DNA of 64,000 nucleotides. Origin: a virus. Its lineage: Duplodnaviria; Heunggongvirae; Uroviricota; Caudoviricetes. Under the pieces are notes generated by a model. It was not told the origin of the DNA. It ran no database searches and was given only the letters and a program-made list of their open reading frames with translations. The position numbers and the translations under genes were made by a program. Each line of letters starts with the position of its first letter. Positions within the stretch are counted from its first letter, which is position 1. The stretch lies in the IMG/VR virus record IMGVR_UViG_3300022661_000054, one strand, 5' to 3'. This document shows positions 1-27,100 of this stretch, one piece after another.

Positions 1-65
1 AGCAGATAAAGCCAACTTAAAAGACATAGGCTACTCGCCCCTTTCTGTTATTTAATTTTAAAAAC

Positions 66-1046
66 TTATTTCTTTTTGATAAGATTGCTTATAAGCATGG
101 CTGCTTCCTGTCTGGTTAAATAACCTTTAGGATCAAATCTGTTTGCACCTTTACCTGACATGATACCAGCTTTTTTAAGATTATATACAGCAGTTTTTGC
201 CCACTTAGCAATTAAAGCGTCGTCTAGGAATTTAGCTGTTGAAGCTGTGCTTGACTTTGCATAAATATTATTTATCAAAACAGCAGCCTCTTGACGAGTA
301 ATATTAGCTGTAGGGTTAAAGTTAGAGCCATCACCATTCATTAGTTTCTTTTTCTTTAAGCTATAAACAGCGTCTTTTGCCCATGAAGCTATTTTCTTAT
401 CGTCTAAGTACTTTGCACTATCAGCCTGTGCTGTGAATTTATATTTTTTAACATTACAAACGTTGTTAACAAGCACAGCCATTTCCTGTCTGGTAATATT
501 ATTGGTTGGATTAAAAGTACCATCAGTATTGCCATTCATAATCTTAGACTCTTTAAGACTGTAAACTGCATCTTTTGCCCACGAAGCTATCTTTTTGTCG
601 TCTTTAAATAAATCTCTAATATGGTAATTATCGCTATTATATGCGCCTTTAACATTAGGAATACCTAAATAAGGTGTCGGGTCAATAGCTGTGTTATTTG
701 CATTATTAATTTGATAATGAAGATGCACACCGGTACTATTGCCTGTAGTACCCATGGTGCCTAAAACAGTAGTTCTAGATACTTTCTGTCCTTTCTTTAC
801 CTTAACACTACCTTTTACTAGATGACAAAAAATGTGTCTGTTTCCAGCTTCATCACCAACTGAGACGTACTGTCCCCAGCCACCCTCGTCAAAAGCTACG
901 TTGCGAACGGTACCATCACATGTGGCGTAAATTGTTCTATTTGAGCAGACAATATCAAGGCCTTTGTGACTATTAGCCCAATATTTTCCTTGCTGACCAA
1001 ATATTGCAGTGATTTTAAATTCACCGCTGATAGGTAAATTAGTCAT
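66..1046 (-). CDS. Endolysin: N-terminal M23 (lysostaphin-like) metallopeptidase plus three C-terminal SLH cell-wall-binding repeats
   Basis: M23 motifs HKGLDIV and HLHYQI are present. Three tandem repeats of the form DDKKIASWAKDAVY...FNPT.NITRQEAAVL resemble SLH domains, and the DNA itself is repeated at about 380-410 and 570-600. The gene sits at the end of the structural module. Confidence 0.85.
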   Translation of the reverse strand: MTNLPISGEFKITAIFGQQGKYWANSHKGLDIVCSNRTIYATCDGTVRNVAFDEGGWGQYVSVGDEAGNRHIFCHLVKGSVKVKKGQKVSRTTVLGTMGTTGNSTGVHLHYQINNANNTAIDPTPYLGIPNVKGAYNSDNYHIRDLFKDDKKIASWAKDAVYSLKESKIMNGNTDGTFNPTNNITRQEMAVLVNNVCNVKKYKFTAQADSAKYLDDKKIASWAKDAVYSLKKKKLMNGDGSNFNPTANITRQEAAVLINNIYAKSSTASTAKFLDDALIAKWAKTAVYNLKKAGIMSGKGANRFDPKGYLTRQEAAMLISNLIKKK

Positions 1047-1078
1047 AGTATTCTTCTCCTTTATATTTAAATTTTTAT

Positions 1079-1726
1079 TTATCTATAGAAAATTAAATTT
1101 CCATTATCTTCACTATAGACAGTATCTGGATAATTATCATCAATAACTGGTATTTCTATTTCAAATGAATAATAAATATCTTCATAATGACCGCTAATAT
1201 CGATATATTCATTTTCATAAGAATAATCACCGTATACATTATTTATAGGTAGATAATCTGATGTACTAAGATGACCGTATTCATCGTAGGCGTCTATCCA
1301 ATACGAACCACTCACAGTAACTAGTGATCCCTCATCCCAATCGCCATAGTCATTTGTTTGCATTTGGTAACGAACAGTAATGTAGGATGCCTGTCTAGGT
1401 AAAATTTCCCAAGTAAGCACTATTCTATCTGTGCTTCCATCGCGCCAGCAATAGCCTTCTAGAGGTTCAATATAAATAGCATATGTACCACTTGCTATCT
1501 GTTCATATTCGCCAGTTATTCTTACAGTAGTATCATTGTAGTCCGCAAGGTAGGCACGAACATCTATATAACTGTCACAGTAACTAAATGTAGTATGAGG
1601 TAAATGCGGAGTATTGATCTTGGTAGGTCCAGAAGAAAACCATAATTTACCATTTATCTTAACAGACTTTACTGGCTGACCATTTATTTTTATTGTTCTT
1701 GGTTTTGACATATTATTCAACCCCAA
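1079..1726 (-). CDS. Hypothetical Tyr/Asp-rich structural protein, possibly the distal part of a fibre or receptor-binding protein
   Basis: Long ORF in the structural operon whose start overlaps the stop of the upstream gene. Composition is rich in Y, D and G. No motif recognised. Confidence 0.6.
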   Translation of the reverse strand: MGLNNMSKPRTIKINGQPVKSVKINGKLWFSSGPTKINTPHLPHTTFSYCDSYIDVRAYLADYNDTTVRITGEYEQIASGTYAIYIEPLEGYCWRDGSTDRIVLTWEILPRQASYITVRYQMQTNDYGDWDEGSLVTVSGSYWIDAYDEYGHLSTSDYLPINNVYGDYSYENEYIDISGHYEDIYYSFEIEIPVIDDNYPDTVYSEDNGNLIFYR

Positions 1727-3308
1727 TCAGTTTGAAAATGCTAGTTCCCTCATTTTCGTCTTCCCACTCAATTTCCATCTCTAATAGTGTCTGCTTTGTT
1801 GCTTTTATTTCTGGTGAATTTATATATTCTATTCTGCTAACACCGCAGTCACTTCCATCATTAAAACCATATTCATGTATTTCCAGAGTACACCCTACAA
1901 TACTGGCTAATTTTTCAGCTTCAGTTCCTGTTAAGTTATCTAGAATGCCACAGTCTAAAACATTCTGTTTATTACCTTCATATGTTAGATAGACTGATAT
2001 ATCAGCAAAACTAGGATCATTTGCAAATAACCTACCGTCAGCCGTTTTCAAAGTAATATATAAATGTGCCTCAGAATTAGCAGCAGTACAAAAAATGCCA
2101 GTTTTAACATTCGTTTCAGTCAAAGTAATATTATAAGTCTTCTGTTCGTTAATGTCTGATTTTGATATAACAGTATACTGTTTTTCTTGTAATACGGGGA
2201 GAGTAATTAAGTCTTTGGCTTCTAAGTGCTTGCTTGATGCATAGAAGCTAACAGTGCCTTCATCACCCATAGAATAATCTAGATTAAAACCTAGATAAAA
2301 TGGCCCATAAGGATTTGACATATAGCTACCATTATGGTAATAGTAAAGCTCATTAAGTGTAGTAGTTGTTCTTTCACCCGCATGACAACCGAAACTACAG
2401 TTAATAAACTCATTCCCGTTTATATCTACGCCATAGTAATATACATCACCATTAGTATTATTCACCAAAGTTATTTCATCGTCTGCGCTGTTAACCGTGA
2501 ACCTTGCTGTGTTACCGTAAGGTTCACTAGTGTATACTAGTTCAGCAATCGTACCATCGAGTTTCTTATCAATAGCGCTTTGTAGCTTAGTTGATGCAGA
2601 GCTTACTGCAGAGCTCACTGACGTACTTACTAATGATTGTACTTCACTTCTGTTTAATAGCTGATTATTAGAAGAAGTAGTTGTCGTGCCGGTATAGATT
2701 TTTCCACTAACAAAACTATTACCAGCTGTATCTACTTTTAGTGTATTACGAAGAATTTTTTGTAATTCTGAATTATTATCTATTAGTTTAAATTGCGCTG
2801 AATCATTATTATTATTACCACTACCATCTTTTATAAATTTAATTTCTATAAAATGACTTCCAGCTGATACATTAGAATAAATAACATTGATTACTGATGC
2901 ACTTGATTTACCTTTTAGTGTCTCTTTTACATTGGTTGTCGTATTGGCGGCATTCCGCACCAACTCTTTGTCTATAGTACCAAATACGGCATAGTCATAA
3001 TTAGCCTCAGCATAATTAATTACATCAAATACAACGTCACACTTTTCTGGTACATCAATATCTACTCTACAAATAGCATAAGAACCAGCTTTACCCTTAT
3101 TCTGAGACTCATAATAACCATTGTCATTCAAAGCAAAGCCGTATGTAGCGCCTTCAATATTACTGACAGTGTATGTAAATAATGTAGTACTTAAAATAGC
3201 ATTATCAACCTTTTCGGCGGTGAGGAATTTATTATCAGTCTCTTCTTTAGAGTAACATATATCAGAAGCGTTTTTATAACCTTCTTCTGTTTTTAAATAT
3301 TTAGCCAT
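1713..3308 (-). CDS. Putative tail fibre / receptor-binding protein (531 aa)
   Basis: Long ORF in the fibre cluster. It has an S/T/N-rich beta-type composition and follows an RBS after the stop of the 3323..4639 gene. Confidence 0.6.
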   Translation of the reverse strand: MAKYLKTEEGYKNASDICYSKEETDNKFLTAEKVDNAILSTTLFTYTVSNIEGATYGFALNDNGYYESQNKGKAGSYAICRVDIDVPEKCDVVFDVINYAEANYDYAVFGTIDKELVRNAANTTTNVKETLKGKSSASVINVIYSNVSAGSHFIEIKFIKDGSGNNNNDSAQFKLIDNNSELQKILRNTLKVDTAGNSFVSGKIYTGTTTTSSNNQLLNRSEVQSLVSTSVSSAVSSASTKLQSAIDKKLDGTIAELVYTSEPYGNTARFTVNSADDEITLVNNTNGDVYYYGVDINGNEFINCSFGCHAGERTTTTLNELYYYHNGSYMSNPYGPFYLGFNLDYSMGDEGTVSFYASSKHLEAKDLITLPVLQEKQYTVISKSDINEQKTYNITLTETNVKTGIFCTAANSEAHLYITLKTADGRLFANDPSFADISVYLTYEGNKQNVLDCGILDNLTGTEAEKLASIVGCTLEIHEYGFNDGSDCGVSRIEYINSPEIKATKQTLLEMEIEWEDENEGTSIFKLIGVE

Positions 3309-3322
3309 TCAATTCACCTTTC

Positions 3323-4639
3323 TTAATTAAGATATTTAGAATCTAAGTACTCAAGATGCTCTTTAACAAACGTTCTTAAATAGCTTAAAGTGTTTGTGGT
3401 CACTAAAGGAATATCCGGATTGGCAATAGTATCTTTTATAGCCTCATCTTCGCCACCATAACTATTAATATATTTTTCAAACTCGTACATTATTGAACTA
3501 TAGCTTAAAACTGACTCTCTCAACTCTGCGTATCTCTCAATATAATCATTGGAATAAAAGTTGCCAATAATGCTAGGAAGTATACTATAATGGTTTAGGT
3601 AAGGATTGTTAATTGCAGGACGTCCGTCGTCGCCAAATAATGATACTCTACTTGAGTTAAGCAATTCTCCCTCCCAAGATAAGTCAAAAGTAGCGTCGAG
3701 ATCATAAGCACTTAAATACCATTTATCTAAGTCATACGTAACAAGAAGCATGTTCTTGGCTAAGCCATCTGTACCTAGAATGACGTCCTGAAGTATGTAA
3801 TAGTCTATCAGGCTCTGTTTATCAAGACTACGTGTAATAGCATCAGAAACGTTGTTAACATAACCACCATGCACATTTTCATATAAAGTCTGAAATTTAT
3901 TTTTAATATTTGTTACGTCATTACCGACTTCAACACTCCAATAAGTATCTTCACCATTCCATACAGTATTAAAGTTACATGGATTTTTTTGTACGGAACT
4001 ATTACCATTATCATTAAATTCAGCCTGAAGTACAGTATGCTTAGGATTATTTTCATTCATACCGAAAAGTTTGGCATTCTTATTAGTAACTAAGCCATAC
4101 AAACCGACATATTCATTGTTAATATAAACTTTTACAGGAAAACCATCAATAGCACCATTATTTGGGCTATTTCTAAGTTCTTCTGGCAATGAATCATAAT
4201 CATGTCTGCTGGCAACTACCTTGCTCCATAAATTAGAACATACTATGTTTCTAGCATGTAGAATATCGTTATAGTCTGCCTTAAGAGTAAAGATGTTAGA
4301 TGAACCCCAATTTCTAAAATTAATGCTTAGCGGCATTGTACGCCACTCATCACTAAACAATTTAAAAGTAAAATTCTTTTTTGGAAGCGCTAGTGTAGAG
4401 GTTCCTTGTAGTTTAATTTTTGTATAAGCTTTAAAAGTTAATGTTTTAGAGGTATATTCAAGTTCACCATTAACATAGTTCTTCGAATCCGGTATAGAAC
4501 CAGTAATAAATAGAACAGGAACGTCACTATCCTGAGATTCCGTAACAGCATTTAAAGAGTCATTTTTTTGTAATGACTCTTTAAATGCTCCTAATACAGA
4601 AGCTAAAACATCAACTGTGATTAAGTTGTTGTTTGCCAT
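3323..4639 (-). CDS. CotH-like domain protein (structural-module protein)
   Basis: The segment AKNMLLVTYDLDKWYLSAYDLDATFDLSW matches the CotH-kinase-family core (GKN..L..D....KWY.IPWD.D.tFG) as I remember it. A paralogous segment is present in the giant protein. Confidence 0.55.
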   Translation of the reverse strand: MANNNLITVDVLASVLGAFKESLQKNDSLNAVTESQDSDVPVLFITGSIPDSKNYVNGELEYTSKTLTFKAYTKIKLQGTSTLALPKKNFTFKLFSDEWRTMPLSINFRNWGSSNIFTLKADYNDILHARNIVCSNLWSKVVASRHDYDSLPEELRNSPNNGAIDGFPVKVYINNEYVGLYGLVTNKNAKLFGMNENNPKHTVLQAEFNDNGNSSVQKNPCNFNTVWNGEDTYWSVEVGNDVTNIKNKFQTLYENVHGGYVNNVSDAITRSLDKQSLIDYYILQDVILGTDGLAKNMLLVTYDLDKWYLSAYDLDATFDLSWEGELLNSSRVSLFGDDGRPAINNPYLNHYSILPSIIGNFYSNDYIERYAELRESVLSYSSIMYEFEKYINSYGGEDEAIKDTIANPDIPLVTTNTLSYLRTFVKEHLEYLDSKYLN

Positions 4640-4652
4640 AATAATTTACCCC

Positions 4653-5462
4653 TTAGTTGGCATAGAATGTAAGTGTTCTAAGTGAAGTGCCAGCCGGCTC
4701 AACTAATATTAAACGTAAATAACCGTCACTGCCAGTATATGAACCAATTACGGCATAAGTAGCAATATTCCAACCAGATTCATCACTAGAGTAGTGTATT
4801 AATATACGTTTATTAGCATTGAGGTCTGCTTGTGCGACAGCAGCTGAGCAACGTTCACCTGTAGATGCTATATACAGATTAGAATTTGTACCACTGGCGG
4901 CTGAACTACTATTATATACTACTGTGTCAGCGCTAACTTTTGACGGTTCAATTGTATTAAGAGAAGTTGTTGTAGAACTTTGATGTACAGTTATAGCCGG
5001 CGAACCACCTTCTAGACTCATTCTATCTAGCATTACTAAACTAACATATTCAGAACCAGTTGAAGCTGTATAATAAACACCTAAAAGTTCTACGACCGCG
5101 CCGTTGTTGTCATTTTTCACAAGAACTCTATTACCAGCTATAAAATCATTATAAATATTACCATAATCGGCAATCTGTGAGTGATTCTCATCAACATAAA
5201 TAGATGCAGAGCTTCCATGATACAGTACAGTGCTTCCCGCTGAGTCACCACCGCCAATTGAACCTAGATCTGGTTTATTTAAAATAAATGCTGGACTGTC
5301 TTCATTGGTTTCATTCCAGTCAGCCTGAACTTTTGAACCAGAAGTGGTTAAGTTAGATGCTGGAACTCTTACAACTTCTCCGCCTTCTTCAACAAGAATG
5401 TTAGGAGAGGACGGATTTTCGTGCATTTCTACTTCACTTAATTTTTTGTATTGGTAAGCCAT
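4653..5462 (-). CDS. Hypothetical structural protein (269 aa)
   Basis: ORF in the fibre operon with G/S/T-rich beta-type composition. Its start is coupled to the stop of the upstream GT2 gene. Confidence 0.6.
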   Translation of the reverse strand: MAYQYKKLSEVEMHENPSSPNILVEEGGEVVRVPASNLTTSGSKVQADWNETNEDSPAFILNKPDLGSIGGGDSAGSTVLYHGSSASIYVDENHSQIADYGNIYNDFIAGNRVLVKNDNNGAVVELLGVYYTASTGSEYVSLVMLDRMSLEGGSPAITVHQSSTTTSLNTIEPSKVSADTVVYNSSSAASGTNSNLYIASTGERCSAAVAQADLNANKRILIHYSSDESGWNIATYAVIGSYTGSDGYLRLILVEPAGTSLRTLTFYAN

Positions 5463-6259
5463 TATGACTTCCTCCTTGTATAATTTATTATTTTATTTAA
5501 TAAGGCTAAATCTTTACCTTTTAAATTTTTATATTTGTTTTGCATTTCTTCTACAGTTTTTTTAATATATGTCATGTCACCATTATTCTCAGCAATAAAT
5601 TTTGCAGATAGGTACATAGCATTTATAAAATCAGAATCCTGCTTTTTGTCTCTTTCGCTGTCAGTTTTTCTAAGCACAGAATTTTTATTAAAAGTCCATA
5701 ACATAGTCACTACCTTGATGGTATTTATCTTCATAAATGCATTACACATTGAATTAAAATACGAATCATCAGCCCATCTGACTTCAGGAGAATTTCTGAT
5801 ATTATATTTCTTTAGTGATGAAACATTATATAATTTTCCATGACACGCAGTATAATTATCAGTCCGTAAACTTAGAACATTATCTCCATGTAAAGTGTAT
5901 TGCTCATAAAAATGCGTGTGAAGAAATTCTATATCAGGATAAGCTTTGATAACTTCATTAAAAGTTTCGACTGCGTAAGGCATAAACATATCATCTGAAT
6001 CTAAGAATGTTATAAAATTCTGTTCAGTATTATCTATGCCTACCTGTCTAGTCATACCGCATCCGATATTTGTTTCATTACGAATATATCTTATATTTAA
6101 TTTAGCATTGTAATCATCTACTATTGATTTAATATCTTCAGTAGAGCAGTCATCTACGACTGTAACAGTAAAATCCTGATCTGTTTGAGCTACTAGTGAA
6201 CTAAGTGTTCTGCCTAGTGTGCTAGCACAGTTGTAAGCAGGAATAATAACATCTATCAT
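5462..6259 (-). CDS. Family 2 glycosyltransferase (GT-A fold)
   Basis: The N-terminus reads MIDVIIPAYNCASTLGRTLSSLVAQTDQDFTVTVVDDCSTED. The DxD-like triplets DSD and DDS lie downstream. This is typical of GT2. Confidence 0.85.
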   Translation of the reverse strand: MIDVIIPAYNCASTLGRTLSSLVAQTDQDFTVTVVDDCSTEDIKSIVDDYNAKLNIRYIRNETNIGCGMTRQVGIDNTEQNFITFLDSDDMFMPYAVETFNEVIKAYPDIEFLHTHFYEQYTLHGDNVLSLRTDNYTACHGKLYNVSSLKKYNIRNSPEVRWADDSYFNSMCNAFMKINTIKVVTMLWTFNKNSVLRKTDSERDKKQDSDFINAMYLSAKFIAENNGDMTYIKKTVEEMQNKYKNLKGKDLALLNKIINYTRRKS

Positions 6260-6286
6260 TTTAAAGTTTGCCTTTCTTTAAATATA

Positions 6287-7984
6287 TTAAATTGTATAAA
6301 CAGCACCACTATTATCAGTTAGAATAGCACCGTTTGATGTTGTTACGGGCTCAAGACTACACACAGTTGATAAAATTTCCATTACATCTTCATCAGTAGC
6401 TATATTAATATTTATATTACCTATTTTTATATTTTTAGGCTTAGAATTAAGGAAACAAGGATCTTTTACTTCTTCACCACTTTCATTCCACCAGTCAATC
6501 ATAATAAATTGACCTAGTGCTGCTTGGGGTAATATTACTTTTAGTGTAATAGATGAATCAGTTGATTCAACGCGCTCTTCCGTATAGTCAAAACTAAGGG
6601 TGCTACCGTCTTCGCCATATAAACCACAACCAAAATCATCCACACCAACGTCAAACCTTCTCCAGTATAAGCCATTGTCAATATGTTCTTGTGTAATTTC
6701 TTGTATAGTGCTAATAGAAGTTTCTTCAAATTCATACTCACAGGATACAAGGTTATTAATAGTGTCTCCAACAACTTTAGCGTCCGCTGCAAGACCATCG
6801 TGAGTTAAAGACTTATCTGTATCTATGCGCAATCTTTTCTTATCAGCATATGCATAGATGTAACCTTCACCAGACTCTCCTGCGTCAGAAGTAATCGTTA
6901 TTGTATACGGAGCAGAGGTTTCTGATAAAATGCTGCTAGCACTAAATGAGTTAATAAAATCTCTTAATGTAAAAGTTGCAGGATTGTTCTTATTAGCTGG
7001 GAAGTAGATTAAATCATAAAGGCCTGAAACATAGCCAAAGTCTATATTATTTACTCGAAAACAATAAGCCCATGCACCGTCTATACTTGGATCTGCATAT
7101 GTATAAATAGGTGTGTCAATACTATCAACAGTAATTTTTATACCATCTGAACTATCTGAATAGTCTGTATTACCATCAATCCATTTTGAAAAAATAACTG
7201 GCTCTAATATATCTGGCGGCAGACCAATATTTTCTCTTGCCTGAGCTTTTTGTTCTTCTGTCAACTTTTGAGAGTCAAAGGATACATATTGGTCTTCAAT
7301 ACGTACTTCTTTGTAGATCTCTAAATAAGGTTTTGCCCAATCTGCAATCCAAGTAATCTCTATAGAAGTAATACCGAGCGTTTCTGGAGGGTCCATGTAA
7401 CCAAACGCATTAGAAGAATCTTCTTTTAACAATTGCTGCCAAGAACTGTAAAAGTCCATTCCAGAGACATCCACGGCACCATTGATTCCGGGAAATGTTT
7501 GATAAATTCTTTGTCCCATATCGTCATAGTACCAAATACTAAAGGTTCCTTCATATCCAGTATTATCTACGCATTTAAAGATATCAAGACCTTCGGCAAT
7601 TGGAAGATTTTCTATTTCCGGAATAGATGCTGCGCCAAGCCATCTAATACCATAAGTTGTTGTATCTCCAACTTCCATTGGAGCATACCTTTCCTCGGAC
7701 TTTTGTTCAATACCAAAAAAAGGTAGCTTATTTACTGGAGTTCTACCGTCACCAATCTTCATACGTTCATAGGTATATGGCTCAGTTCTGCTGTATGTGC
7801 CATCTTTATTCTTCGGTAATTTTGGATTACCTTCAGCATCAACTAGGACGTTTCCATTTTCGTCTACTTCGGTATCATAAACGACGATCTCACCTGCAAG
7901 AGGTTTAAAATTAGTAGCGTTAAGCCAATTTACTTCTAAGTCATGCTTATTTTGAATTCGCGTTGTAATCTTTTTTGCAGACAT
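6287..7984 (-). CDS. Tail fibre protein carrying the shared N-terminal anchor motif
   Basis: The N-terminus ...HDLEVNWLNATNFKPLAGEIVVYD...YERMKIGDGRTPVNKLPF matches the motif that recurs on six other proteins in this window. Confidence 0.75.
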   Translation of the reverse strand: MSAKKITTRIQNKHDLEVNWLNATNFKPLAGEIVVYDTEVDENGNVLVDAEGNPKLPKNKDGTYSRTEPYTYERMKIGDGRTPVNKLPFFGIEQKSEERYAPMEVGDTTTYGIRWLGAASIPEIENLPIAEGLDIFKCVDNTGYEGTFSIWYYDDMGQRIYQTFPGINGAVDVSGMDFYSSWQQLLKEDSSNAFGYMDPPETLGITSIEITWIADWAKPYLEIYKEVRIEDQYVSFDSQKLTEEQKAQARENIGLPPDILEPVIFSKWIDGNTDYSDSSDGIKITVDSIDTPIYTYADPSIDGAWAYCFRVNNIDFGYVSGLYDLIYFPANKNNPATFTLRDFINSFSASSILSETSAPYTITITSDAGESGEGYIYAYADKKRLRIDTDKSLTHDGLAADAKVVGDTINNLVSCEYEFEETSISTIQEITQEHIDNGLYWRRFDVGVDDFGCGLYGEDGSTLSFDYTEERVESTDSSITLKVILPQAALGQFIMIDWWNESGEEVKDPCFLNSKPKNIKIGNININIATDEDVMEILSTVCSLEPVTTSNGAILTDNSGAVYTI

Positions 7985-8233
7985 ACTATTATATTTAACT
8001 CCTTTTTATCATTTTTTATATAAATAAAATAAACCCGTTAGTTATCTACTAGATAAAATAAAGCTAGACTTTAATAACAAACGAGTTTGATAATGATCTT
8101 ATATTCATATTATAAGTCTCCTTTAAAATTATCTTTTCAAATTTTCGGACACGAGGATAGTCATCTTTTCAGACATACCCTTAAATTTTTTATTTATAAT
8201 TTACTTTCTTCTTTTAATTTAGCATATAAATAA

Positions 8234-8278
8234 AAGAGCTTTAAGAGAAATTTTTAATAAATCTATCTTAAAGCTCTT
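8234..8278 (-). terminator. Intrinsic terminator after the 8287..8544 gene
   Basis: A 12-bp perfect stem (aagagctttaag / cttaaagctctt) is followed by a T-rich tract on the minus strand. Confidence 0.5.
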
Positions 8279-8286
8279 GTTACTGT

Positions 8287-8544
8287 TTAGTCAGGTAAAC
8301 CGGTTATTCGCCCACCGTCAACCTCTTCATCGTAACGATGTTCATATAAAACATCTTCCGTTGTAGATTTTATAAAAAAATCTAATTCTTGTAAAGTTCT
8401 AGCGCCATCACCGACTTTAATACGAGAATACTTGATTTTGTCGTCAGGATCATATATAATTAATTCCCCTGCTTCTGGTTTAAAAGAAGATAACTTTAGC
8501 CATTCTGCCTCGGTCTTATGTAGATTACTTATTCTAGCTTTCAT
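8287..8544 (-). CDS. Anchor-only mini-protein (85 aa): the shared fibre N-terminal motif with no fibre shaft
   Basis: Sequence is MKARISNLHKTEAEWLKLSSFKPEAGELIIYDPDD..IKVGDGARTLQELDFF. A TAATG overlap couples it to the upstream gene. Confidence 0.6.
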   Translation of the reverse strand: MKARISNLHKTEAEWLKLSSFKPEAGELIIYDPDDKIKYSRIKVGDGARTLQELDFFIKSTTEDVLYEHRYDEEVDGGRITGLPD

Positions 8545-9236
8545 TAATTAAAGTTACCTCCATTTTTAAGAATTTGTTTAATTACCATATTGTCTACCGA
8601 TTCAGATATATCTGTACCATAAGAAAACATATTTACTTTTTCCATGTCTGATAGAGATTTTATATACTGTTTAGCGGCATTAAAATATGTTGTATGGTAA
8701 AGAACGTGTGCCCTGAAAGTTTTTACAATCTTAAGCATGTCTTCACGTAAAAATATTTTACACGGTTTATCAGTAGCGTGATATATAAAGGTTTCTTCTC
8801 CCGCAACTAACTGACCTTCAATTACCATTAAGTTAATTTGATCTTCTGTAGTTAATTTAAAACTACACAATTCGCCATCAGATAAAGTAACAGAAAAACC
8901 GGCAGTAATTTTATTTTTACACGTATTAGAAAGACGTTTTATAACTTCACGCTTGGCCTTGGCAAGGGCTGATTCATTAGCGCTAGGCTCCTGACCAGAG
9001 TTTAATAGACTCTGTAGTCTATTAAACTCTTCAGAAGAAATTTCTTCAATAGTAACTATATCTGACTTTCTCTGCGCCAGAGGAGCAAATGCATATAAAG
9101 TTGTATTATCAGAACCGACTATTCCATGAGCGGAAGACTTATCCGTAAGATTTACTTGACCTGTAGACATCAGTCTAAAGAAGCGAGGTATCTTTACTAC
9201 ATCAATAACCTTATTATTAAGTATAATTTTATACAT
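8544..9236 (-). CDS. Hypothetical protein (230 aa), possibly a fibre assembly or adapter protein
   Basis: Its start overlaps the stop of the giant gene through a TAATG junction. No motif recognised. Confidence 0.65.
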   Translation of the reverse strand: MYKIILNNKVIDVVKIPRFFRLMSTGQVNLTDKSSAHGIVGSDNTTLYAFAPLAQRKSDIVTIEEISSEEFNRLQSLLNSGQEPSANESALAKAKREVIKRLSNTCKNKITAGFSVTLSDGELCSFKLTTEDQINLMVIEGQLVAGEETFIYHATDKPCKIFLREDMLKIVKTFRAHVLYHTTYFNAAKQYIKSLSDMEKVNMFSYGTDISESVDNMVIKQILKNGGNFN

Positions 9237-12200
9237 TATGCTTCCTCCTCATACTCAAAATTAAGAATACAATTACTTGCACCAAATGTTGGGTCTTTTT
9301 CTCTGCCTTGATCGTCTACTCCAGAATAGTAATTGTAATGTTGCTCTTCTGTCCATGGGAAATTAAATATAACAGGGTTATCCTGGCTACCAGAATTTAT
9401 GAAGGCTCCTGGATGAATATAGAAAGGCTGCTTGTCACCACTTTCAGTATTTTTAAAAGTTACACTCTTCAAAGTTGACATATATCCAAAAGCTCTCTCC
9501 ATGATGTTGGTTACAGTAGATGGGATTATAACACTTTCTAATATACATTGATTAAATACATAAGTTCTTATGTCAGTTAAGCCTTCTGGTAAGACTACTT
9601 CAGATAGCTTATAACACCAAGAAAAGCAAATATCACGTAATTCTTTTAGTGTACTTGGCAACACAACATTTTGTAGTTGCTCACAATGACTAAATGCATT
9701 GTCAGCAATAGAACTTACACCATTAGGTATTTCAATAGCTGTAATTGGCATTTTAGCAAAGCAATATCTACCAAGACTGACTACAGAACCATCTTGTGGA
9801 ATCTCGTTAGTTAGACCTTGAAGTAACTTTTTACTTTGTTTATCAATTAAACAATTTTGTTTAACTACAAATTTAGTATTGCCTTCTGCAACATTAATTT
9901 TCGTTAGCTTCAAGCATTCTGCAAAAGCGCCGTCATTAATAGTAGAAACATTAACTGGAATAGTTATTTCTTTTATTGTATCACAGCCTTGGAAAGCCCT
10001 TGAATCAATTGTTTCTAGAGAATCAGGTAAATTAATCAACTCCAATTCATCATGATCGTTAAAACCACCTAATCGTATTACAGTATAAGGCATGCCAGCG
10101 ACCTCAATATTTTTTGGTACAGTAACAGCAGCATTTTGATAGTTATTATATTTAATAATAGCCATTGTACCATCTGGATTGAGCGTATGCCCGACTTGTA
10201 GCTTTTCATTATAATCATAATATTCACCAATATCATAAATGTCTACTACATGCCAGGAGCTTTCTGATACCTTAAATTGTGCATAGCAAGTCATCGGACC
10301 AACAATTTTTTCTGGTGCTGGATGCCAACCAGTAAACTCATATATATCAGAAGATGGTACAACCGGAGTGGGATAGCCAGCGCCAAAGTAGTCTGCATCT
10401 TCACCATAAGGAACATAAATTTCAGCTAATAATTGGTTTCCCTCTGGGGCAGTTTGGTTTATAAATGTTATAAGATAACTACGCCTAATTGCCTCAAAAG
10501 CAGGATAAAGTATTCGATTACCAGCAACTCCAAGTAAAGCATCCGCATGAACACCCTCACCTAATTTTCTAGTCCAACCAATCCACTCGTAATTAAACTC
10601 TTCAGTAGAATCTTTAGTAGGCTTAGCAATCATACCTTCAGGCACTTGGCCATCGTCACCTAAATAGACCGGATCTTCACAATCAACTATCTCAGAATTA
10701 TATGATATAATGGTTTCACGATGTAGTACTGTTTCACCATCAGCACCCATAAATATAACATCTGAAGTCATTTCACCATATATAATATCAAGATAAGGAT
10801 AATGAGCTTTAATTTCTGTATACTCCTCACCTGTGAGCTTTGTAATATAGCAAGTACCAACTAAATAAGCGTCATCTAAAGGATTGTTTTTTTCGTCAAT
10901 ACCTCTTATACCACTAACAAGATTACCTGCTTCATCAAATACTGGAAACAAAGATGTGATAAAACTAGCATCAGCTAAAGGCATTTCTGCCGTGCCCCAC
11001 TCGATACCGGTAAGACGGACACGCTCAACAGTGTACTTGCCAGTATTATCGCAGCAATTTGCAAGTATTTCATTTGTATTCAAATTAGGACAGTTTTCTA
11101 TACACAAAGTTCTTATGTTTTGGTAACCCTCTACATAAAATCCGTCTATGAAGTCATCAGAACCGTTCTCTCCACGCTGTGGATACAAATAATGTTGATT
11201 TTTAATAACTAGCGTATTAATCGATGCAGGAAGATGAAGCGTCTTAATATAGCCACTAGTAGGCAGGTCTACTGAGGTAAGGTTAGTACCTTCAGTGTAA
11301 ATATGCTCAATATTAGGACATCCAGATAGCTCCAAAGTCTTTTGCGGATTTTCACCCGCAATACCAAGGCCTGAGCAGTTTCTTAAATCAATATAGCGCA
11401 ACAACCTATTAGAGCCTACTGAAATTTCACGGAAGTTATCATTATAATATGCAGAGTCTGGATTACCAACAGTTAGCTCTGTTAATTTTGCAGCATTACT
11501 TAGGTTAATAACACCACAATATAAACCAGACAAATCACCAAGAGAAGAGATTTCGCTGGCACCATAGATAGCGGTCTCAGTGTCACCGAATGTTTCATTC
11601 TCATTTAGCGGTTTAAATGTGTAAGATTCACCTGCTTTTAACCTTTGTTGCTGAAGTGTACCAGACTTATAACGAACGCCAGCATACATATCTGAGAAGG
11701 GTGTTATAGTAATATTAGGATTAGCAGGTACAACAGCCAAAGAAGCGTTGATACGATCAATTTCTTCCTGTGTAGCATCGTCAGCAGCCTTAGGAGTATA
11801 AATTCGTAAGAAAATATCATCACTCGGGTAGTTTCCTGCATACCACTTGCTATCACAGTAATTTATACGGTTATCAATAAAGTATCTTAAATGGTGCTCA
11901 CCAGGGCCACGAACTTGATAAAGGTTAGAAGCATCTATACCAGTTACTTCATTACCGTCTTCATCCTTATGAGCAACATGCTCTCTTGCCATAGAAACGT
12001 ATTTATAATCTGCGTCAGCGTTATAGATGGCAGCACTCCATTTATCAGAACCATTAGTAACGAATTGTTCTATAATTTTATTATAGGTTAGCTTTCCACT
12101 ACTTCTTAGTTCAGAATAAGTATCCTCGATCTCTTTTGGAAAACAGAGTCTGAAGTTGTTCCAAAGTACGCTATTCTGACCATTAAATACATTAGAAGAA

Positions 12201-15200
12201 CCGAGTTGATCAGTATCTTCGTGAAAATAGTCAAAAACTAGAGCACCTTCATTGTTGATACCAAAAATTGTGTCGTTATCATAGAAGTATGGATACCATC
12301 TAAAAACACCATCGTCCTCTTTCCAACGAGTAAGGAATAGGTTCTTAGCCCTCTGGTCAGTCATTAGCGCAAAGAACGTGAATACATAATACATGCTACT
12401 ATAATGCATGTTGAAGTAATTTTTAAATTCGTACTTAAACTTAGCTAATCTATACTCTTCATTGTCCTCAGTATAAGTTGTTTCACCATAAACTATAGGT
12501 TCAGTCAATGGTGCAGGGGTAATTGCTACTTTTTTACCATCTATAAGAGAATATGTAGCTGTACTGAGTACCCAATCATGCATTTCTTTAAAGTTAGCAA
12601 TGCAGTTAGACATTAAAGTAGCGAGCTCATTTCTTTGCGCGGATGTCATTGTACCTTTTCCGCTTGCTGCGAGCTCTTCAACTTCTTTTAGTTCTTCAAT
12701 ACGCTCAAAGTTAGCAGATTCTGGTACATATCTCGGTTCAAAGTCTTCTAGCCAATCAGCTGTGATCTCACCGGCGAAGTTTACTGTGTCAGAAGTGTTA
12801 TTACAGAATTCCCAACATTCTACGCCGTAGTCTTTATACTCTTCAGTAAATCCAAAAGCATTTTCAGCATCTTTATCATAGTTAAAGTTACCCTTAGATG
12901 AAAACACTGGTTCAGAGTCTTCAGTCTCTTTTTCAAAGATAATAATTGGGAAACCTTGAATCGTTGTACGTACTCTAGTATCATCTTTCTGCGGCGGGAG
13001 AATTACTTCTTCTCTATCATAAAAAGTTTCAACGTAATTAGCAACTCCTGTATTGTGGGTACCAGTAGCTTCTGCGTAATCTACTTTAACACAAAATACT
13101 TTTGCTGGAATGGCCCCAGGCATATGAGCCCTTGCTTCAGGAAGCTTTACTTTCCAGTTTTTACGAATATAGAACTGTGAAGAAGTACCTTGTACGTCAA
13201 TCTGGTCCAAAAGTACGTCAAAATTCATTTCTGGGTGCGTTGGGTCCTCAAACTTCATACGTGTAGTCTTCTTCTTTTTATCACCTTTATACGTAGGCAT
13301 TGGGCCTGTAAAAGTAATAATAGGAATCTGCCCGAGAGCTTTTACTCTATCATATGAAACCTTACCGTTTTCGTCTAATATATCATTATCCGTCATAAGC
13401 TGTAGTCTTGTAGTAGGCACAGTCTGGTCTGCAATATAGTTATTTAAAGCGGCAGATGTTGAAAGTGCTTTATTATAAATACGAATATTATAAATATCAA
13501 GTCCACATAAATTTGAACCCAGTTTAATAGTTAATGGGTTATTCTGCTGAAAGCTATCAGTGTCTGCATATCTTTGTACTCCAGAAAGAATACCGTCAAG
13601 ATATATAGAAACAAAACGAGAAGTCGTATCTGAATGTTCTACTGCTATAGCGACTCTAACACGCTCCTCATCTTTATATCTGCAAGAAACCTCTGTACCA
13701 GAGCTCTTTAAGAAAGCAGTATCTGGGGTTGCTCTGAAACCTTTAGAACCATCGAAACAATCGATTACAACAGCATCGCGGTCATTAACATCACGAACAA
13801 CAAACTCAAATTCAATGGTTTTACCATTAGCCTTAAAGTCTTCAGCAAAAGGTTTAAAGTTAATAATTGCTTTAGCATCACCATTTAGTCTTAAGCAGGT
13901 ATCACCGGCATTATCAGTAATCCAACCGTTAGATGTCCAGTTAAAACCCTCAAAAGAAGTAGTAACCGTGTTATATGTTTTGTCACCATCAGGTGCTTGA
14001 GTATATTCCCAAATGGCTGGATTTTGCTCATTATTTGAGCGACCTTGTGCAGACAGGTAGAGCTGCATACTGTCCTCTTCAGGTGATACATCTACCTCAA
14101 GCTCTGCCACCCTCACAGTATGTGATTTAGTAATAGTCGTTTGTACACCATACAAATTATAAGTATAACTAATTTCAAATACTGCAATACCATTTGGATA
14201 TTTTCTCGTATTCCAGAATTGCTGGCTACGGTCTACAGTAATAGATGTTCTGTCTATTTCAATTAATTCGCCAGCTACCTGAGAGTACACAATAAGTTCG
14301 ATATCACTATTAATTTTAGCAGGGTCATAAACCATGTAAGGAATTGATACAAGGTCACCCTGAGTAGCTTCCTCAAAGTCATACACAGATGTGATAATAG
14401 CAGTATTGTTATCATTCTCAATACAAATAATCTCATACTCAAGAATATTAGAAGTAACAGTATTGTCGCCAACAACTGCGGATACATGAGCAGTAATTTT
14501 ATGGCATCCATGAGCTTGCTTCGGAATTAGCAAGGTTATTTCATTACCACTAACACTTGCGCCAAGTTTTTTAATAGAAACCTCTGCGCCATCTACTAAG
14601 ATATAGGCAGTCTTTTCTATCTGCCCAAATACTTTATATCTGAATGTAATAGCATCATTAAAAATTTGTGTACTATTAAAAGCAGATTCAAGACGGAGTT
14701 CAATCTGTGAAATGGTATATACTAAAGTTCTCAAAGAACCATACTGGTCAGTACAAGTTACCTTAACAGTATTTGAACCATTTTTTAAATGATCTGCAAC
14801 ATTCAAAGACTTAGCTATTCCATGTTGAATACTACCAGATAGAGTCTCAATTTTTTTATCATTTATAACAACAGAATAAACACCATCACCAGTAGGTACT
14901 TCATTTTCGAATGATGTATAAGTGAAATTAATCAATGCTTCATTACCCTTTGAAATAGTAAATGAAGTAGAAGGAAGATTATTTATTACTCTAACCGTGG
15001 AGATGCTTCCACCACCACCTGTGCCTCCAGTAATAGTTACTGGGTCACCAACCGGTATATCTTTAGAAGTTAACCATAGCTGATTGTCTTCGTAGAGCAA
15101 ACCATCAACAGCGTTAGAAGGAATATAGCTAGGTAGACTTGCTTTAAGAGCGTCGAGGTCATCACCAATAGCTCTAACTGCATCACCAGCAGAAGCGTGA

Positions 15201-16990: not shown

Positions 16991-17054
16991 AAGCTTAACT
17001 CCAATCTACTTGTTTTATTGTTCGTATAATTTAGCAAATAGATTAAAAAAAATT

Positions 17055-17082
17055 AAGCAGGTGACCTTAAGGTCACCTGCTT
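17055..17082 (-). terminator. Intrinsic terminator after gene 17107..19398
   Basis: Perfect 28-nt palindrome aagcaggtgacc-ttaa-ggtcacctgctt followed by TTTTTTTT on the minus strand. Confidence 0.75.
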
Positions 17083-17106
17083 AAAACATATATTAGTATC
17101 TAATTA

Positions 17107-19398: not shown

Positions 19399-19446
19399 AA
19401 TTATTTATCTCCTATAAAAATTTAATAAAATTTAATTTATTTTAGC

Positions 19447-19479
19447 AGGTTACTTGGCATAATTAATGCCAAGTAACCT
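19447..19479 (-). terminator. Intrinsic terminator after gene 19500..22313
   Basis: A 14-bp perfect stem (aggttacttggcat / atgccaagtaacct) is followed by an AT/T-rich tract on the minus strand. Confidence 0.6.
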
Positions 19480-19499
19480 ATTTAATTTAGCTTATTATT

Positions 19500-24142: not shown

Positions 24143-27100
24143 TTAAATAACCTCCTTAATGATGTATCTATACTTCTCTCCATTATTTACACTATCAAGA
24201 TTTACCCAGAGTGTGTAGTCATTAGGAACTGTTGGGACGTCTAATCCGCAGCTCTCAAGTGTTTCACTAATTAGATCTTTATCACAAGTTAATTGACTTG
24301 CAAAATCTGGGGAAGTGTTTTTCCATTCTTTAGAACCGTTGTCCCAAATTTTTACAGAAACTTGTAATTTATCTGAGTTTAAATCAAGACTGTTTGGAAG
24401 TGCAATCATATAAAACAATTCATTTTCATAACTTGTAAATTGTTGATAGCCAGACTCATTAACAGTATCACCATCAATAACTTGATAGAATCCAGCAGTA
24501 TCAGGAGCTTTTGTTGACTCTTCTACAGTCATCGTTTTATAGTTAAAAGCAACTTCCTCAAGTTGGCCACCAGCAGCTATTTGATACATAGGTAATTCAT
24601 TAGCTATTAAATTATCTATAATACCTTCTGGCTCGTCAGGATTTTCAGGTTCTTGTCCTGGCTGTTCATCAGTAAGCCCTAATAATTTAGCCAATATTTC
24701 TGCTATTTTAAGGTCTTTTATATTATCGCCGACTTTAAAATCTCCAATAGGGTTACTAATAAATTTAGCAGTTGTAAAAGGAGTATCATTAGCTTTAACA
24801 TCAACAGCTGTTGCAATTGCATTAGCTATTTCTGAAGTAGTTGAATAATCTTCAAGTGATTGATGTTCAGTTAAGTAGCCTTTAGCTGTAAGCTCTTCTT
24901 CTGTAATATATTCACTAGGTATTTCTGAGATAAACTTAGAAACGTCAGGAATATCAGACTTTAGAGCGAAATTGCTCACGTCAGGAATTTCTTTCTTAGT
25001 TGCTAAATGACTAATATCTTGATGCTGTGTTAAATAACCCTTAGATTCGAGTTCGCCCTCAGTTATGTATTCAGCAGGAACTTCGCTAATAAAACCTTCA
25101 ATCTCATCCTTAGTAACATAATTATCTAAGTTCACTACTGGATGTTCAATGGCCTCGATTGCGTTATTTAGTTCTTCTTTTGTTGCAAAACCATCAACAA
25201 CTGGCAGCTCTGTCTTCTTAACATACTCGCTAAGATCTTGATGCTCAGTAAGATATCCAGCATCATTAGTAAATGCACTTACGTTGGTAGGAACCTCTGG
25301 AATTTCAAGTGCAAAAATCTGTTCATTAACATATTGCTCAGAAGCAAGCCCATCGGTATTTGGAAGGCTATAAACCTCTTTACCAATTCTGATACTAGTT
25401 AATTCACCGTTAACTTCGCCGTCAGCGTTTGCTTCAACTTTATTTAATTTAACTTCTTTGGAAATTTCCCAGGTATTATCACTGTGTAAATAATAAGTAT
25501 TAAATGAACCATAAGCTTCACTTCTGCTTGTTAAGAATTTTGTAAATGTAATCATGTCACTTCTGACATAATTCATCACTGCGTAACCATTTACATCAGG
25601 AGCAGCATTAGCTAAAACCAGGAATTTGCCATTGTTATATGCATTAATTGCAGCAGTAAAGTCCGGTGCAGCAAAATCAACAACAAATAGTTCTGTCTCA
25701 GGAATTTCAATACCTGCAATAGCGTTATTTACAAACTCTTCAGTTGCGAGACCTTCTATAGAAGGAATTTCAAGCTCTTTGAACTTATTATCAACTTCAG
25801 TCTTGTTATAATAATTCGCAAGAAGATTATCAAGCTCTTCCTCAGTTACTTCGCCACCATTGAGCTCAGCTTTAGCAATTTCACTTCTAACAAAATCTTC
25901 CGAGGCGAGTCCTTCAATACTAGGAATTTCAGACTTCTTGGCATATTCACTAAGATTTTGATGCTCAGTTAAATAACCTTTAGCTTCAACATCTTCCATA
26001 GTAATAAAGCTAGAAGTATCAGGAATATCAATTCCATTTATTACTTCATTAACTAAGGCTTCTGTTTCAGATTTATTATAGTAATTAGATAAATTAACTT
26101 CAGGAATATCTTTAGCAGTGATGTAGCCTGCATCATTTTCTAATTCACTTACTTTTGTTGGATATTCAATATTACTAATTGCATTATCTACATATTCTTC
26201 AGTAGCATATTTTGCATCATTCTCAAGTTCACTTACTTTAGTAGGTACTGCAGGGATAAGTACATCAACTTCAGACTTAGTGTAATAAGCGCTAAGGTCG
26301 ACGTCCTGGTCAGCTAGTTCAGCTTCAGCAATTTTCTGAGTAACAAACTCCTTAGTAGCGACGTCAAGTTCTTGCTTACCAACGTTGAGCTTGTTATCCT
26401 CAGTAATTTCAACTTTATTAAGTTTAACTTCTTTTGAAACTTCCCAGGTATTAGCCGGACTTAGATAATAAGTATTAAATGCGCCGTAGGTTTCACTTCT
26501 ACTCATTAAGAATTTTGTAAATGTAATATATTTTTCACTTACATAATTCATTACGGCATAGCTATTAACGTCTGGAGCCGCATTAACTAAAACTAATACT
26601 TTTCCATTATTGTAAGCTTCAACTGCCTCGGCATAATCAGGAGCGTTGAAATCAACTTTATAAAGTTCAGCCTCAGGAAGCTCTATATTATTGATAGCCG
26701 TGTTAACGAATTCTTCTGTAGCCAAACCTTCGGTACTAGGAATCTCAGGCTTATTATTTAAATCGTTATAGTCTCTACTAAACAGCTCATCCTTTTTAGC
26801 ATAAGCTTCTAAACTTTGATGTTCAGTAAGATAGCCTTTTTTGTCAAGTGTGTCTTCTGTAATATACTCATTATGAGCATGATCTATTGTCGCATATTCT
26901 TCATGGCCATGTACTTTATTTGCATAATCTTCATGTAAATGATCAGTTGTTGCATAGTTAGCATGACTATGCTCAACAACTGCATATTCAGTATGCTCAT
27001 GATCTACGTCAGCCTTACCTGTAGCGATAGTAGTCAAAGCTTCAATAGCGTCCTTATTATTATCTATTAAGCTTCCAAGCTCTTTAAGAGTATCATAAGC

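Follow-up and report, generated by a model that had tools for sequence, protein, structure and literature searches.

CotH-family kinase-fold domains in the tail-fibre gene block of a metagenomic phage

Introduction

The CotH proteins of Bacillus are protein Ser/Thr kinases and the sole characterised bacterial members of their family (PMC7821199). CotH retains the equivalents of D166, N171 and D184 of protein kinase A (PKA), and adenine is stacked between Tyr142 and Trp245 (PMC12189002); in B. subtilis CotH, the D228Q and D251A variants are catalytically dead (PMC7821199). Here, we describe two CotH-family domains encoded in a 64,000-nucleotide stretch of DNA from a tailed phage (Caudoviricetes; IMG/VR record IMGVR_UViG_3300022661_000054), hereafter the window. 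One is found in a free-standing protein of 438 amino acids, which we call p438, and the other lies within a giant fibre protein of 2584 amino acids.

CotH domains have been met in phages before. Targets of diversity-generating retroelements (DGRs) that are ~2000 amino acids long and contain CotH and Laminin_G_3 motifs were placed in category f1 by Wu et al. (2018). Roux et al. reported a viral target cluster, PC_00012, with a CotH-like kinase and speculated on host signalling and on the manipulation of dormancy or sporulation, and Macadangdang et al. (2024) documented variable proteins of > 2000 amino acids in which CotH active-region motifs lie beside motifs for carbohydrate binding as well as leucine-rich repeats (LRRs; domain group 3). 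Phage CotH proteins 'are currently unstudied' (Benler et al., 2021; PMC8008677). Outside bacteria, the Fam20 family is a distant relative of CotH (PMC7821199), and CotH3 of Mucorales binds host GRP78, the fungal CotH proteins acting as host-receptor ligands (PMC9973265).

The locus described here resembles each of these systems in part. With Bacillus CotH (5JD9/5JDA, B. cereus), p438 has the family profile PF08757 in common, and the Bacillus structure was the sole significant structural match of our models of both domains; the structural-alignment identity is, however, only ~14% for p438 and 10-11% for the giant's domain, the context is that of phage fibres, and no substrates with SKR repeats of the CotB/CotG type are encoded nearby. 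The giant protein shares with the CotH-bearing DGR variable proteins a layout of weak Laminin_G_3, CotH-like and LRR_5 regions, but it ends in a BspA-type LRR where they end in a hypervariable C-type lectin diversified by the retroelement. No C-type-lectin or DGR-related Pfam match was found in p438 or the giant; no systematic search for a reverse transcriptase or template repeat was made in the rest of the window. In cultured-phage CotH proteins the domain is fused behind an anchor, whereas p438 is free-standing and linked to a gene for a family 2 glycosyltransferase (GT2). The Fam20 secretory-pathway kinases, which include the protein kinase Fam20C, are distant protein-kinase-like relatives of CotH with extracytoplasmic or surface substrates; they are eukaryotic Golgi enzymes, however, and gave no direct sequence or fold match in our searches. 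Lastly, the CotH invasins of Mucorales likewise belong to Pfam CotH, are surface-displayed and are used in host attachment, but they are fungal, carry a signal peptide or glycosylphosphatidylinositol anchor, and play a ligand role without an obvious need for catalysis; they are the template of the rival adhesin reading and not of the one preferred here. The best explanation overall, to which we give a probability of about 0.6, is that the phage domains are CotH kinase-fold parts of the tail-fibre or host-recognition apparatus, probably active, that may modify fibres.

Results

Both proteins carry a CotH-type fold

The two proteins, and the relevant part of the larger one, are encoded as follows.

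3323-4639, minus strand: p438, stand-alone CotH-family protein (438 amino acids, ATG start)
9236-16990, minus strand: giant fibre protein (open reading frame of 2584 amino acids)
11801-13342, minus strand: CotH-like domain of the giant, residues 1217-1730 (BLASTP, hhalign, AlphaFold2, Foldseek)

p438 has an N-terminal helix and linker (residues 1-40) and a CotH kinase-like domain (residues 75-432). An earlier note on this DNA, made from the letters alone, had reported a CotH motif in p438, where it quoted the peptide AKNMLLVTYDLDKWYLSAYDLDATFDLSW (residues 294-322), and in the giant protein. For p438 the motif is real and goes far beyond chance: Pfam CotH (PF08757) matched at an E-value of 6.5e-22, its score of 78.9 bits exceeding the gathering threshold of 23.8, and residues 75-432 cover the profile from end to end (1-322 of 322). 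A precomputed Pfam CotH domain was likewise present in 120 of the 120 p438 homologues listed. An AlphaFold2 model of p438 built from ten homologues reached a pLDDT (predicted local distance difference test) of 67 and a pTM (predicted template-modelling score) of 0.73. When this model was compared with the PDB by Foldseek, the B. cereus CotH kinase (5JDA/5JD9) was the sole significant match (E 2.7e-11, probability 1.0), with a template-modelling (TM) score of 0.66 to 5JDA, normalised to the target, and the next matches had E > 1. Ten predicted viral structures were also matched, including a 'CotH kinase protein [Siphoviridae sp.]', Gp353 of Bacillus phage G, and two crAss-like phage proteins annotated as internalin-like and spore-coat-like.

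By sequence, the PDB gave no such link. Neither phmmer with p438 nor hmmsearch with a 10-sequence profile found CotH there, and when this profile was compared by hhalign with the B. cereus sequence by itself, a 42-column local match resulted (probability 1.8%) that aligned the motifs and is not significant alone. As these searches failed, we relied on Pfam, on Foldseek and on a 145-sequence alignment. No CotH model of NCBIfam matched p438 or the giant protein.

The giant protein begins with a weak Mtd_N-like N-terminus, continues into a long coiled coil (with a weak Apolipoprotein-type Pfam match), a weak Laminin_G_3 region (residues 1053-1178) and the CotH-like domain (1217-1730), in which a large helical/beta insertion separates the lobes, and closes with a BspA-type LRR_5 C-terminus. 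Here, the direct Pfam test that the earlier note had proposed was negative: Pfam CotH matched the giant neither whole, nor in halves, nor as the excised domain, even at E <= 10, so that by the refuting condition set in the note this half of its claim would fall. Four other lines of evidence nevertheless upheld the assignment. First, BLASTP of p438 against the giant gave two colinear alignments, at residues 1222-1352 (E 3e-5) and 1534-1716 (E 4e-5). Second, hhalign of the giant-homologue profile against the p438-family profile aligned 401 columns with a probability of 99.6% (E 2.9e-24). Third, the homologues found by the giant's domain are 27-46% identical to it, one being named 'CotH kinase family protein [Parabacteroides gordonii]', and in an alignment of 12 sequences that includes the giant's own domain (A2), 10 of the 12 matched Pfam CotH (best E 8e-12), the giant's copy being one of the two that did not. 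Fourth, the AlphaFold2 model of the domain (pLDDT 77, pTM 0.80) matched 5JDA/5JD9 and nothing else in the PDB (E 2.8e-9, TM 0.67). With pLDDT values of 67 for p438 and 77 for the giant's domain, model confidence is moderate. We file the giant's domain as divergent CotH-like, without Pfam-defined membership.

Structure prediction, another check that the earlier note had called for, thus led from both proteins to the same two PDB entries. It also spoke against the structural beta-sandwich that the note had entertained, since both models show the kinase-like alpha/beta architecture with two lobes that is seen in 5JDA. To call the two copies paralogues was an overstatement: p438 and the giant's CotH domain are ~20-26% identical and are distant homologues from different CotH subfamilies, not products of a recent duplication.

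A chance resemblance without any real CotH domain could draw on the missing direct Pfam match in the giant and on the empty PDB sequence searches with p438 or the family profile. Its probability is negligible, because it is refuted by the full-profile Pfam match (E 6.5e-22), the match of both models to 5JDA and the hhalign probability of 99.6%. Since family profile, profile-profile comparison and predicted fold agree, we regard it as close to certain that both proteins carry CotH-family domains.

The catalytic Asp and Asn residues are retained and near-invariant

The B. cereus CotH sequence was read off the PDB alignment. In it, Trp245 belongs to PWDYD, which makes D246 the counterpart of PKA D184, and the D-x4-N loop consists of D223 and N228. 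The B. subtilis CotH sequence through which the B. subtilis numbering was mapped scored 529 bits in a check against 5JD9. Conservation was counted in 145 phage-type sequences (p438 and 144 cluster representatives, at 35-53% identity) aligned with B. cereus CotH. The key residues of the two domains are encoded at three places.

3695-3769, minus strand: catalytic core of p438 (D291, N296, Y312, D313, D315), aligned to B. cereus D223, N228, W245, D246 and D248
4376-4381, minus strand: K87-K88 of p438, the N-lobe Lys-Lys of the QG-x7-KKN motif, aligned to B. cereus K54-K55
12272-12358, minus strand: catalytic core of the giant, D1545 and N1550 (D-x4-N), Y1570, D1571 and D1573 (alignment A2)

The correspondence with B. 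cereus CotH and the conservation among the 145 sequences are as follows.

K54 / K55: p438 K87 / K88, 99% / 98%
D81: p438 D125, 100%
R86 / N87: p438 R130 / N131, 100% / 99%
Y142: p438 F192, Phe or Trp in 113 of 145 (~78%), in a loosely aligned region
D223: p438 D291, 96%
N228: p438 N296, 97%
W245: p438 Y312, 97%
D246: p438 D313, 100%
D248: p438 D315, 100%

Hence D291 and N296 of p438 make up the D-x4-N catalytic loop (PKA D166/N171), Y312 is the equivalent of the adenine-stacking Trp245, and D313 is that of PKA D184 and B. subtilis D251. In the giant, the core residues are invariant across the 12 sequences of A2 (D329, N334, Y354, D355 and D357 in domain numbering), and hhalign pairs D1545/N1550/Y1570/D1571/D1573 with D291/N296/Y312/D313/D315 of p438; the Tyr142 position is F1379. 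The features of Bacillus CotH that are kept here are therefore the D-x4-N loop, the metal-binding Asp of (W/Y)DxD, the N-lobe Lys-Lys and, in aromatic character, the putative adenine-stacking pair, while Trp245 is replaced by Tyr and Tyr142 by Phe, and the giant's copy has its large inter-lobe insertion inside 2584 amino acids.

The earlier note had asked whether the catalytic residues of CotH are conserved, and the equivalents of the catalytic Asp residues are indeed retained (D291 at 96% and D313 at 100% of the 145 sequences; D1545 and D1571 invariant in A2). Judged from these alignments, the catalytic set of both domains appears intact and under strong purifying selection. Because the full set (D-x4-N loop, metal-binding Asp, putative adenine-stacking aromatics) is so strongly constrained, we lean, by a modest degree, towards reading the CotH domains as active Mg/Mn-nucleotide-dependent phosphotransferases and disfavour an inert scaffold. 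Of the functional options raised in the note, the near-invariant active-site residues favour phosphotransfer.

The CotH genes lie in a tail-fibre gene block

In transcription order, the block around p438 encodes a 763-amino-acid protein, the giant, a phrog_1348 fibre protein, proteins of 85 and 565 amino acids, GT2, a 269-amino-acid protein, p438, proteins of 531 and 210 amino acids, and an M23 peptidase. Its members outside the CotH genes and the GT2-led pair next to p438 include the following, together with the binding region of the giant.

17107-19398, minus strand: 763-amino-acid coiled-coil fibre-like protein, at the start of the block in transcription order
9452-9778, minus strand: best-scoring LRR_5 stretch of the giant, residues 2405-2513 (Pfam)
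8544-9236, minus strand: 230-amino-acid tail fibre protein (phrog_1348 'tail fiber protein', E 3.6e-12)
6287-7984, minus strand: 565-amino-acid fibre-like protein upstream of GT2, with an Mtd_N-like N-terminus and a ~38-amino-acid C-terminal tail
1713-3308, minus strand: 531-amino-acid protein directly downstream of p438 (18.5% Ser+Thr)
66-1046, minus strand: M23 metallopeptidase with an SLH domain (PF00395; Pfam)

A common N-terminal motif of the Mtd_N type, W...GE...K(I/V)GDG...L, is found on four of these proteins, namely the giant, the 763-, the 565- and the 85-amino-acid protein, whose N-termini are encoded at 16990, 19398, 7984 and 8544, all on the minus strand; it suggests that several fibres may use one attachment site. 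A 239-amino-acid protein with a weak Mtd_N match is encoded on the same contig, just outside the window (L001 17379-18098). The start of the 230-amino-acid tail fibre gene overlaps the stop of the giant gene. Pfam LRR_5 matched the giant in two stretches (E 2e-39), and the best-scoring one probably marks its ligand-binding end. With its weak Mtd_N-like N-terminus, coiled coil, LRR_5 region and adjoining phrog_1348 gene, the giant is in all likelihood virion-borne.

For p438, the evidence for a place in the fibre comes from its operon position and its fused relatives, and we consider it somewhat more likely than not that this protein, too, is virion-borne. Intergenic gaps are at most 27 nucleotides from 7984 down to 1079, and no terminator-like site was found on the coding strand between the block genes (1046-9236); the single terminator-like match in the 1-9500 scan falls within the M23 gene. 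A promoter scan of 1-9500 was uninformative, promoter-like sites occurring at about the level of shuffled sequence. The placement of the CotH domains within a phage fibre operon, as the earlier note had it, is thus borne out by the phrog_1348 neighbour, the Mtd_N-like N-termini and relatives in fibre and baseplate proteins.

The 531-amino-acid protein matched no family in Pfam, PHROGs or NCBIfam and is probably a host-specific fibre or spike. In the M23 protein, three SLH repeats are apparent by eye, and beyond its gene, outside the window (L001), lie an Amidase_3 gene and then a gene for a CHAP+lysozyme protein of > 923 amino acids. The SLH domains indicate a host with an S-layer or a pyruvylated secondary cell-wall polymer, probably a gut member of the Bacillota.

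A GT2 / small protein / CotH cassette recurs in related phages

Two genes directly upstream of p438 form a cassette with it.

5462-6259, minus strand: GT2-family glycosyltransferase, 265 amino acids, first cassette gene (Pfam Glycos_transf_2, E 2e-25)
4653-5462, minus strand: 269-amino-acid Ser/Thr-rich protein between GT2 and CotH (20.8% Ser+Thr)

The same trio recurs on four further contigs: L004 (219 kb), L006 (94 kb, with SPbeta-like YomU/YomW tail genes; its sample label, XIAO16-1, we believe to denote a pig gut catalogue), and the IMG/VR contigs L007 and L008, a GT2 gene lying upstream of CotH in the last two as well. The flanking genes vary.

4653-6259, minus strand, with 3323-4639: cassette of the window
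8439-11302: cassette of L004
7877-10429: cassette of L006
4404-7302: cassette of L007
866-3447: cassette of L008

Across the cassettes, GT2 copies are 61-72% identical (the L004 and L006 orthologues, in the same position) and CotH copies 55-75%. The 269-amino-acid protein has a conserved N-terminus (MAYxYKKLSEV), homologous to that of L004_248 (E 9e-29) and L006_150 (E 2.5e-24), and a variable, Ser/Thr-rich C-terminus, and it matched no family in Pfam, PHROGs or NCBIfam; it is a candidate fibre subunit or substrate. The two genes that flank p438 rank second and third in Ser/Thr content among 55 open reading frames (20.8% and 18.5%, versus a median of 11.4%). Downstream of CotH, the slot is occupied by a different gene in each phage, for a 531-amino-acid protein in the window, a 1051-amino-acid Peptidase_G2 protein in L004 and a 640-amino-acid protein in L006. 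Upstream of GT2, the genes of the window, L004 and L006 share a ~38-amino-acid C-terminal tail and are otherwise unrelated. By BLASTP, the tail of the 565-amino-acid protein matched the L004 and L006 genes with E 4e-4 and 1.6e-5; its pattern is ATDEDVxxxL...PV...G.ILTD..G..., it gave no family match, and it may be a docking or chaperone element.

6287-6400, minus strand: tail-bearing gene of the window
7990-8388: tail-bearing gene of L004
6878-7864: tail-bearing gene of L006

In L004, an anaerobic ribonucleotide reductase cluster (3995-7322; NrdD, a formate/nitrite-transporter-family protein and a radical-SAM activase) lies between a giant fibre gene and the GT2-CotH cassette, from which we conclude that the fibre region accepts cargo insertions. 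A stand-alone CotH version of 429 amino acids, that of L006 and L008, has 55-56% identity to p438; it falls into well over a hundred clusters at 90% identity, some with 150-180 members, which speaks for a very abundant and microdiverse gut phage lineage.

For p438 alone, the trio could instead be non-structural cargo that, in infection or in lysogeny, modifies the envelope or the proteins of the host, with p438 outside the virion and roles in superinfection exclusion, serotype conversion or the manipulation of sporulation. Such a role would suit a unit that moves between phage backgrounds and a protein without a fibre-anchor domain, it recalls the dormancy/sporulation manipulation that Roux et al. 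proposed for CotH-bearing DGR targets, and the GT2 weakly matched GtrB-like O-antigen-conversion PHROGs (E 6.7e-8) as well as teichuronic-acid/exopolysaccharide glycosyltransferases, the NCBIfam matches all being below cut-offs. GtrB-type enzymes are expected to have a membrane anchor. By eye, however, the GT2 has no hydrophobic stretch suggestive of one, and the cassette runs in the same direction as the fibre genes on either side of it, with gaps of at most 27 nucleotides and no terminator-like site between them. Moreover, its middle and upstream genes resemble fibre subunits, and the closest fused relatives of p438 bear collagen-like or fibre repeats. We therefore consider the cargo role improbable.

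A GT2 partner as a general property of phage CotH was rejected, since a GT2-like gene lay within 6 kb at 5 of 141 wider-family loci, and the cassette claim is accordingly confined to the close subfamily. The linkage in that subfamily has a bearing on whether the kinase fold performs another chemistry, which might be phosphorylation of a glycan on the GT2 product, AMPylation, or a reaction at the host surface that cleaves or transfers wall polymers joined by phosphodiester bonds. Fam20B is a glycan (xylose) kinase and POMK a glycan kinase, and several atypical kinase folds perform non-kinase reactions. The distant relation of CotH to Fam20, the glycosyltransferase link, and the placement of the domain where fibre enzymes acting on surface polymers usually are would all agree with such a chemistry; the characterised Bacillus CotH proteins are, on the other hand, protein Ser/Thr kinases, no sequence feature found here separates a glycan from a protein substrate, and most of the family has no GT2 linkage. 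On balance, another chemistry seems doubtful.

Relatives occupy fibre and baseplate positions in cultured phages

An exhaustive HMMER search returned 2522 clusters at 50% identity (E <= 1e-3), 733 of them at E <= 1e-30. Most of these proteins are 600-1600 amino acids long, with the domain embedded, and relatives were present in 161 species-level genomes (mostly metagenome-assembled genomes of gut Clostridia, Oscillospiraceae and Bacilli) and, in IMG/VR, on 59 contigs. Pfam CotH matched each of 45 long representatives, and their fusion partners were Big_2 (30), Big-like (20), Laminin_G_3 (16), HL_N-beta (7) and Collagen (3), with single cases of Phage_fiber_rpt, Mtd_N, PTR and a GDSL esterase; collagen-like and classic fibre motifs are visible in individual relatives.

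When p438 was searched by tblastn against 50,697 deposited phage genomes, 11 records matched, the cultured-phage matches showing 24-27% identity over 85-88% of the query. In Klebsiella phage ST437-OXA245phi4.1, a 649-amino-acid 'CotH kinase family protein', gp13 (YP_009882445.1, phrog_9391), is encoded between the baseplate and sheath genes, a position which, by the P2 gene order, is the gpH tail-fibre slot; its CotH domain is C-terminal, behind an N-terminal part of ~290 amino acids. In Lacticaseibacillus phage R3.3, a 1051-amino-acid protein (WBM89858.1) encoded directly after Tal has a BppU_N baseplate anchor first and the CotH domain last. Gp353 of Bacillus phage G also carries a phage-type CotH domain, and the cultured-phage CotH proteins passed Pfam CotH wherever tested. 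A spore-specific role was set aside, the domain being found in Klebsiella and crAss-like phages too.

These distal, C-terminal positions in fibre and baseplate proteins bring up the main rival, a ligand-binding pseudo-enzyme, in which the CotH fold, placed at the tip of the fibre, acts as an adhesin or binds a receptor and transfers no phosphate; a metal and a phosphate- or nucleotide-like surface ligand, for instance teichoic acid or a phosphoglycan, would be bound by its conserved acidic and aromatic residues. ATP is scarce outside cells, the fungal CotH proteins act as host-receptor ligands (PMC9973265), and domains of the carbohydrate-binding type are frequent fusion partners (16 of the 45 representatives have Laminin_G_3 and 7 have HL_N-beta). 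Receptor-binding domains usually diverge fast, however, whereas the CotH core is kept at 35-53% identity across phages of Clostridia, Bacilli and Klebsiella and crAss-like phages, and the full kinase catalytic set, including the D-x4-N loop, is kept at 96-100%. The variable modules (the LRR and the DGR C-type lectin) adjoin this core. Conserved enzyme cores beside variable binding modules suggest that the neighbours bind and the CotH domain acts. We thus judge the pseudo-enzyme to be a minority reading, at about one chance in four.

The phage and its wider gene content

The window is contained in a ~220-kb metagenomic contig (ENA ERZ27248370 k141_4000472). A protein identical to p438 is encoded on 24 contigs, 17 of which were found in 0.2-1 Mb blocks, and this recurrence fits a jumbo-phage genome that was assembled repeatedly; a 75%-identical copy is present on a 259-kb IMG/VR viral contig. 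The window has a G+C content of ~35%, the minus strand carries all real-looking open reading frames of at least 100 amino acids in 1-64000, and each 2-kb bin has a negative GC skew (cumulative -4.8). No tRNA genes were found in the 64,000 nucleotides. Megablast of positions 1-20000 against the 50,697 phage records gave zero matches, which indicates a phage without a close cultured relative. The large upstream open reading frames had almost no matches in Pfam and PHROGs (those without a match include 24143-28201, 19500-22313, 33791-35644 and 48962-50458). Within the window, no gene for a capsid, portal or terminase protein was recognised, and so the label of a structural module is based on the fibre-type proteins and their relatives. 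Several auxiliary genes are also present.

29738-30598, minus strand: FolD-like tetrahydrofolate dehydrogenase/cyclohydrolase (phrog_7320, E 4e-116)
47685-48833, minus strand: homologue of 'RNA ligase and tail fiber protein attachment catalyst' (phrog_562, E 1.4e-47)
50732-51883, minus strand: protein with a class II aldolase domain
58664-59629, minus strand: Dam-type N6-adenine methyltransferase (E 3e-60)
37806-38831, minus strand: nucleotidyltransferase (phrog_388)

Discussion

How might CotH domains work on a phage fibre? In the giant, the kinase-like domain sits between a fibre shaft (Mtd_N-like anchor, coiled coil and laminin-G-like region) and the C-terminal LRR binding module, and p438 is a free-standing version of it, encoded in a tightly packed late operon inside the GT2 / Ser/Thr-rich protein / CotH cassette. 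The enzymes could work in the cytoplasm of the infected cell, a source of ATP and nucleotide-sugars, where they would phosphorylate the phage's own fibre assembly, that is, Ser/Thr-rich subunits or their glycans, and p438 may cooperate with the GT2 glycosyltransferase. Host specificity would come from other modules, the LRR here and the hypervariable C-type lectin in DGR targets. The parallel would be Bacillus CotH, a spore-coat component that patterns the coat by phosphorylating its neighbours CotB and CotG; as a component of the supramolecular shell it modifies, it is the template that we adopted. Given the cytoplasmic supply of ATP and nucleotide-sugars and this precedent of a self-modifying coat part, fibre modification during morphogenesis is the simplest model. 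That the domains act on fibre components during assembly is nonetheless a tentative proposal drawn from this analogy. Equally tentative is a broader version, in which the fibre-borne CotH domains actively decorate a surface, either giving the fibres of the phage itself, together with GT2 and during assembly, a phospho-glycan or phospho-Ser/Thr coat, or phosphorylating or otherwise modifying a host-surface polymer on contact.

Several points weigh against active, fibre-modifying CotH domains. The distal end of fibre and baseplate proteins is the usual place for receptor-binding or surface-active domains and speaks for an extracellular role, in surroundings poor in ATP. Ser/Thr richness is common among fibre proteins, and the GT2 linkage may reflect shared ancestry instead of function. 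p438 has no recognisable fibre-anchor domain. Its model falls below a pLDDT of 50 at the catalytic loop (289-296) and in the segment after the DxD (314-330), and the Tyr142 mapping is based on a MAFFT alignment with a single Bacillus sequence. The conserved 'catalytic' residues could serve metal- or phosphate-mediated ligand binding instead. In the literature on phage CotH, we found no functional study, activity, substrate or virion location.

CotH on phage fibres is already known, albeit uncharacterised, and the stand-alone form and the GT2 cassette are minor new details. Taken alone, the window provides a solid annotation and one more example of a kinase fold on phage fibres, and it is neither a discovery nor an answer to what that fold does there. 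The wider family gives the question its weight: CotH kinase domains on phage fibres are frequent in gut viromes and are a conserved partner of DGR-diversified binding domains, and with a constrained active site and defined fibre or baseplate slots in cultivable phages (R3.3, the Klebsiella P2-like prophage and Bacillus phage G) the question is directly testable. Should the decoration proposal be true, this would be the first active protein-kinase-fold domain shown to be a structural part of a tail fibre, and ~2500 sequence clusters would gain a function, as would the DGR targets of gut phages that bear CotH; were the coat built on the fibres of the phage itself, virion maturation would include a step comparable to the patterning of the spore coat. 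If the domains are active, phages would carry a protein or glycan kinase in their host-recognition machinery, and a new category would join the depolymerases, esterases and peptidoglycan hydrolases among virion enzymes; inert domains would represent a widespread adhesin scaffold.

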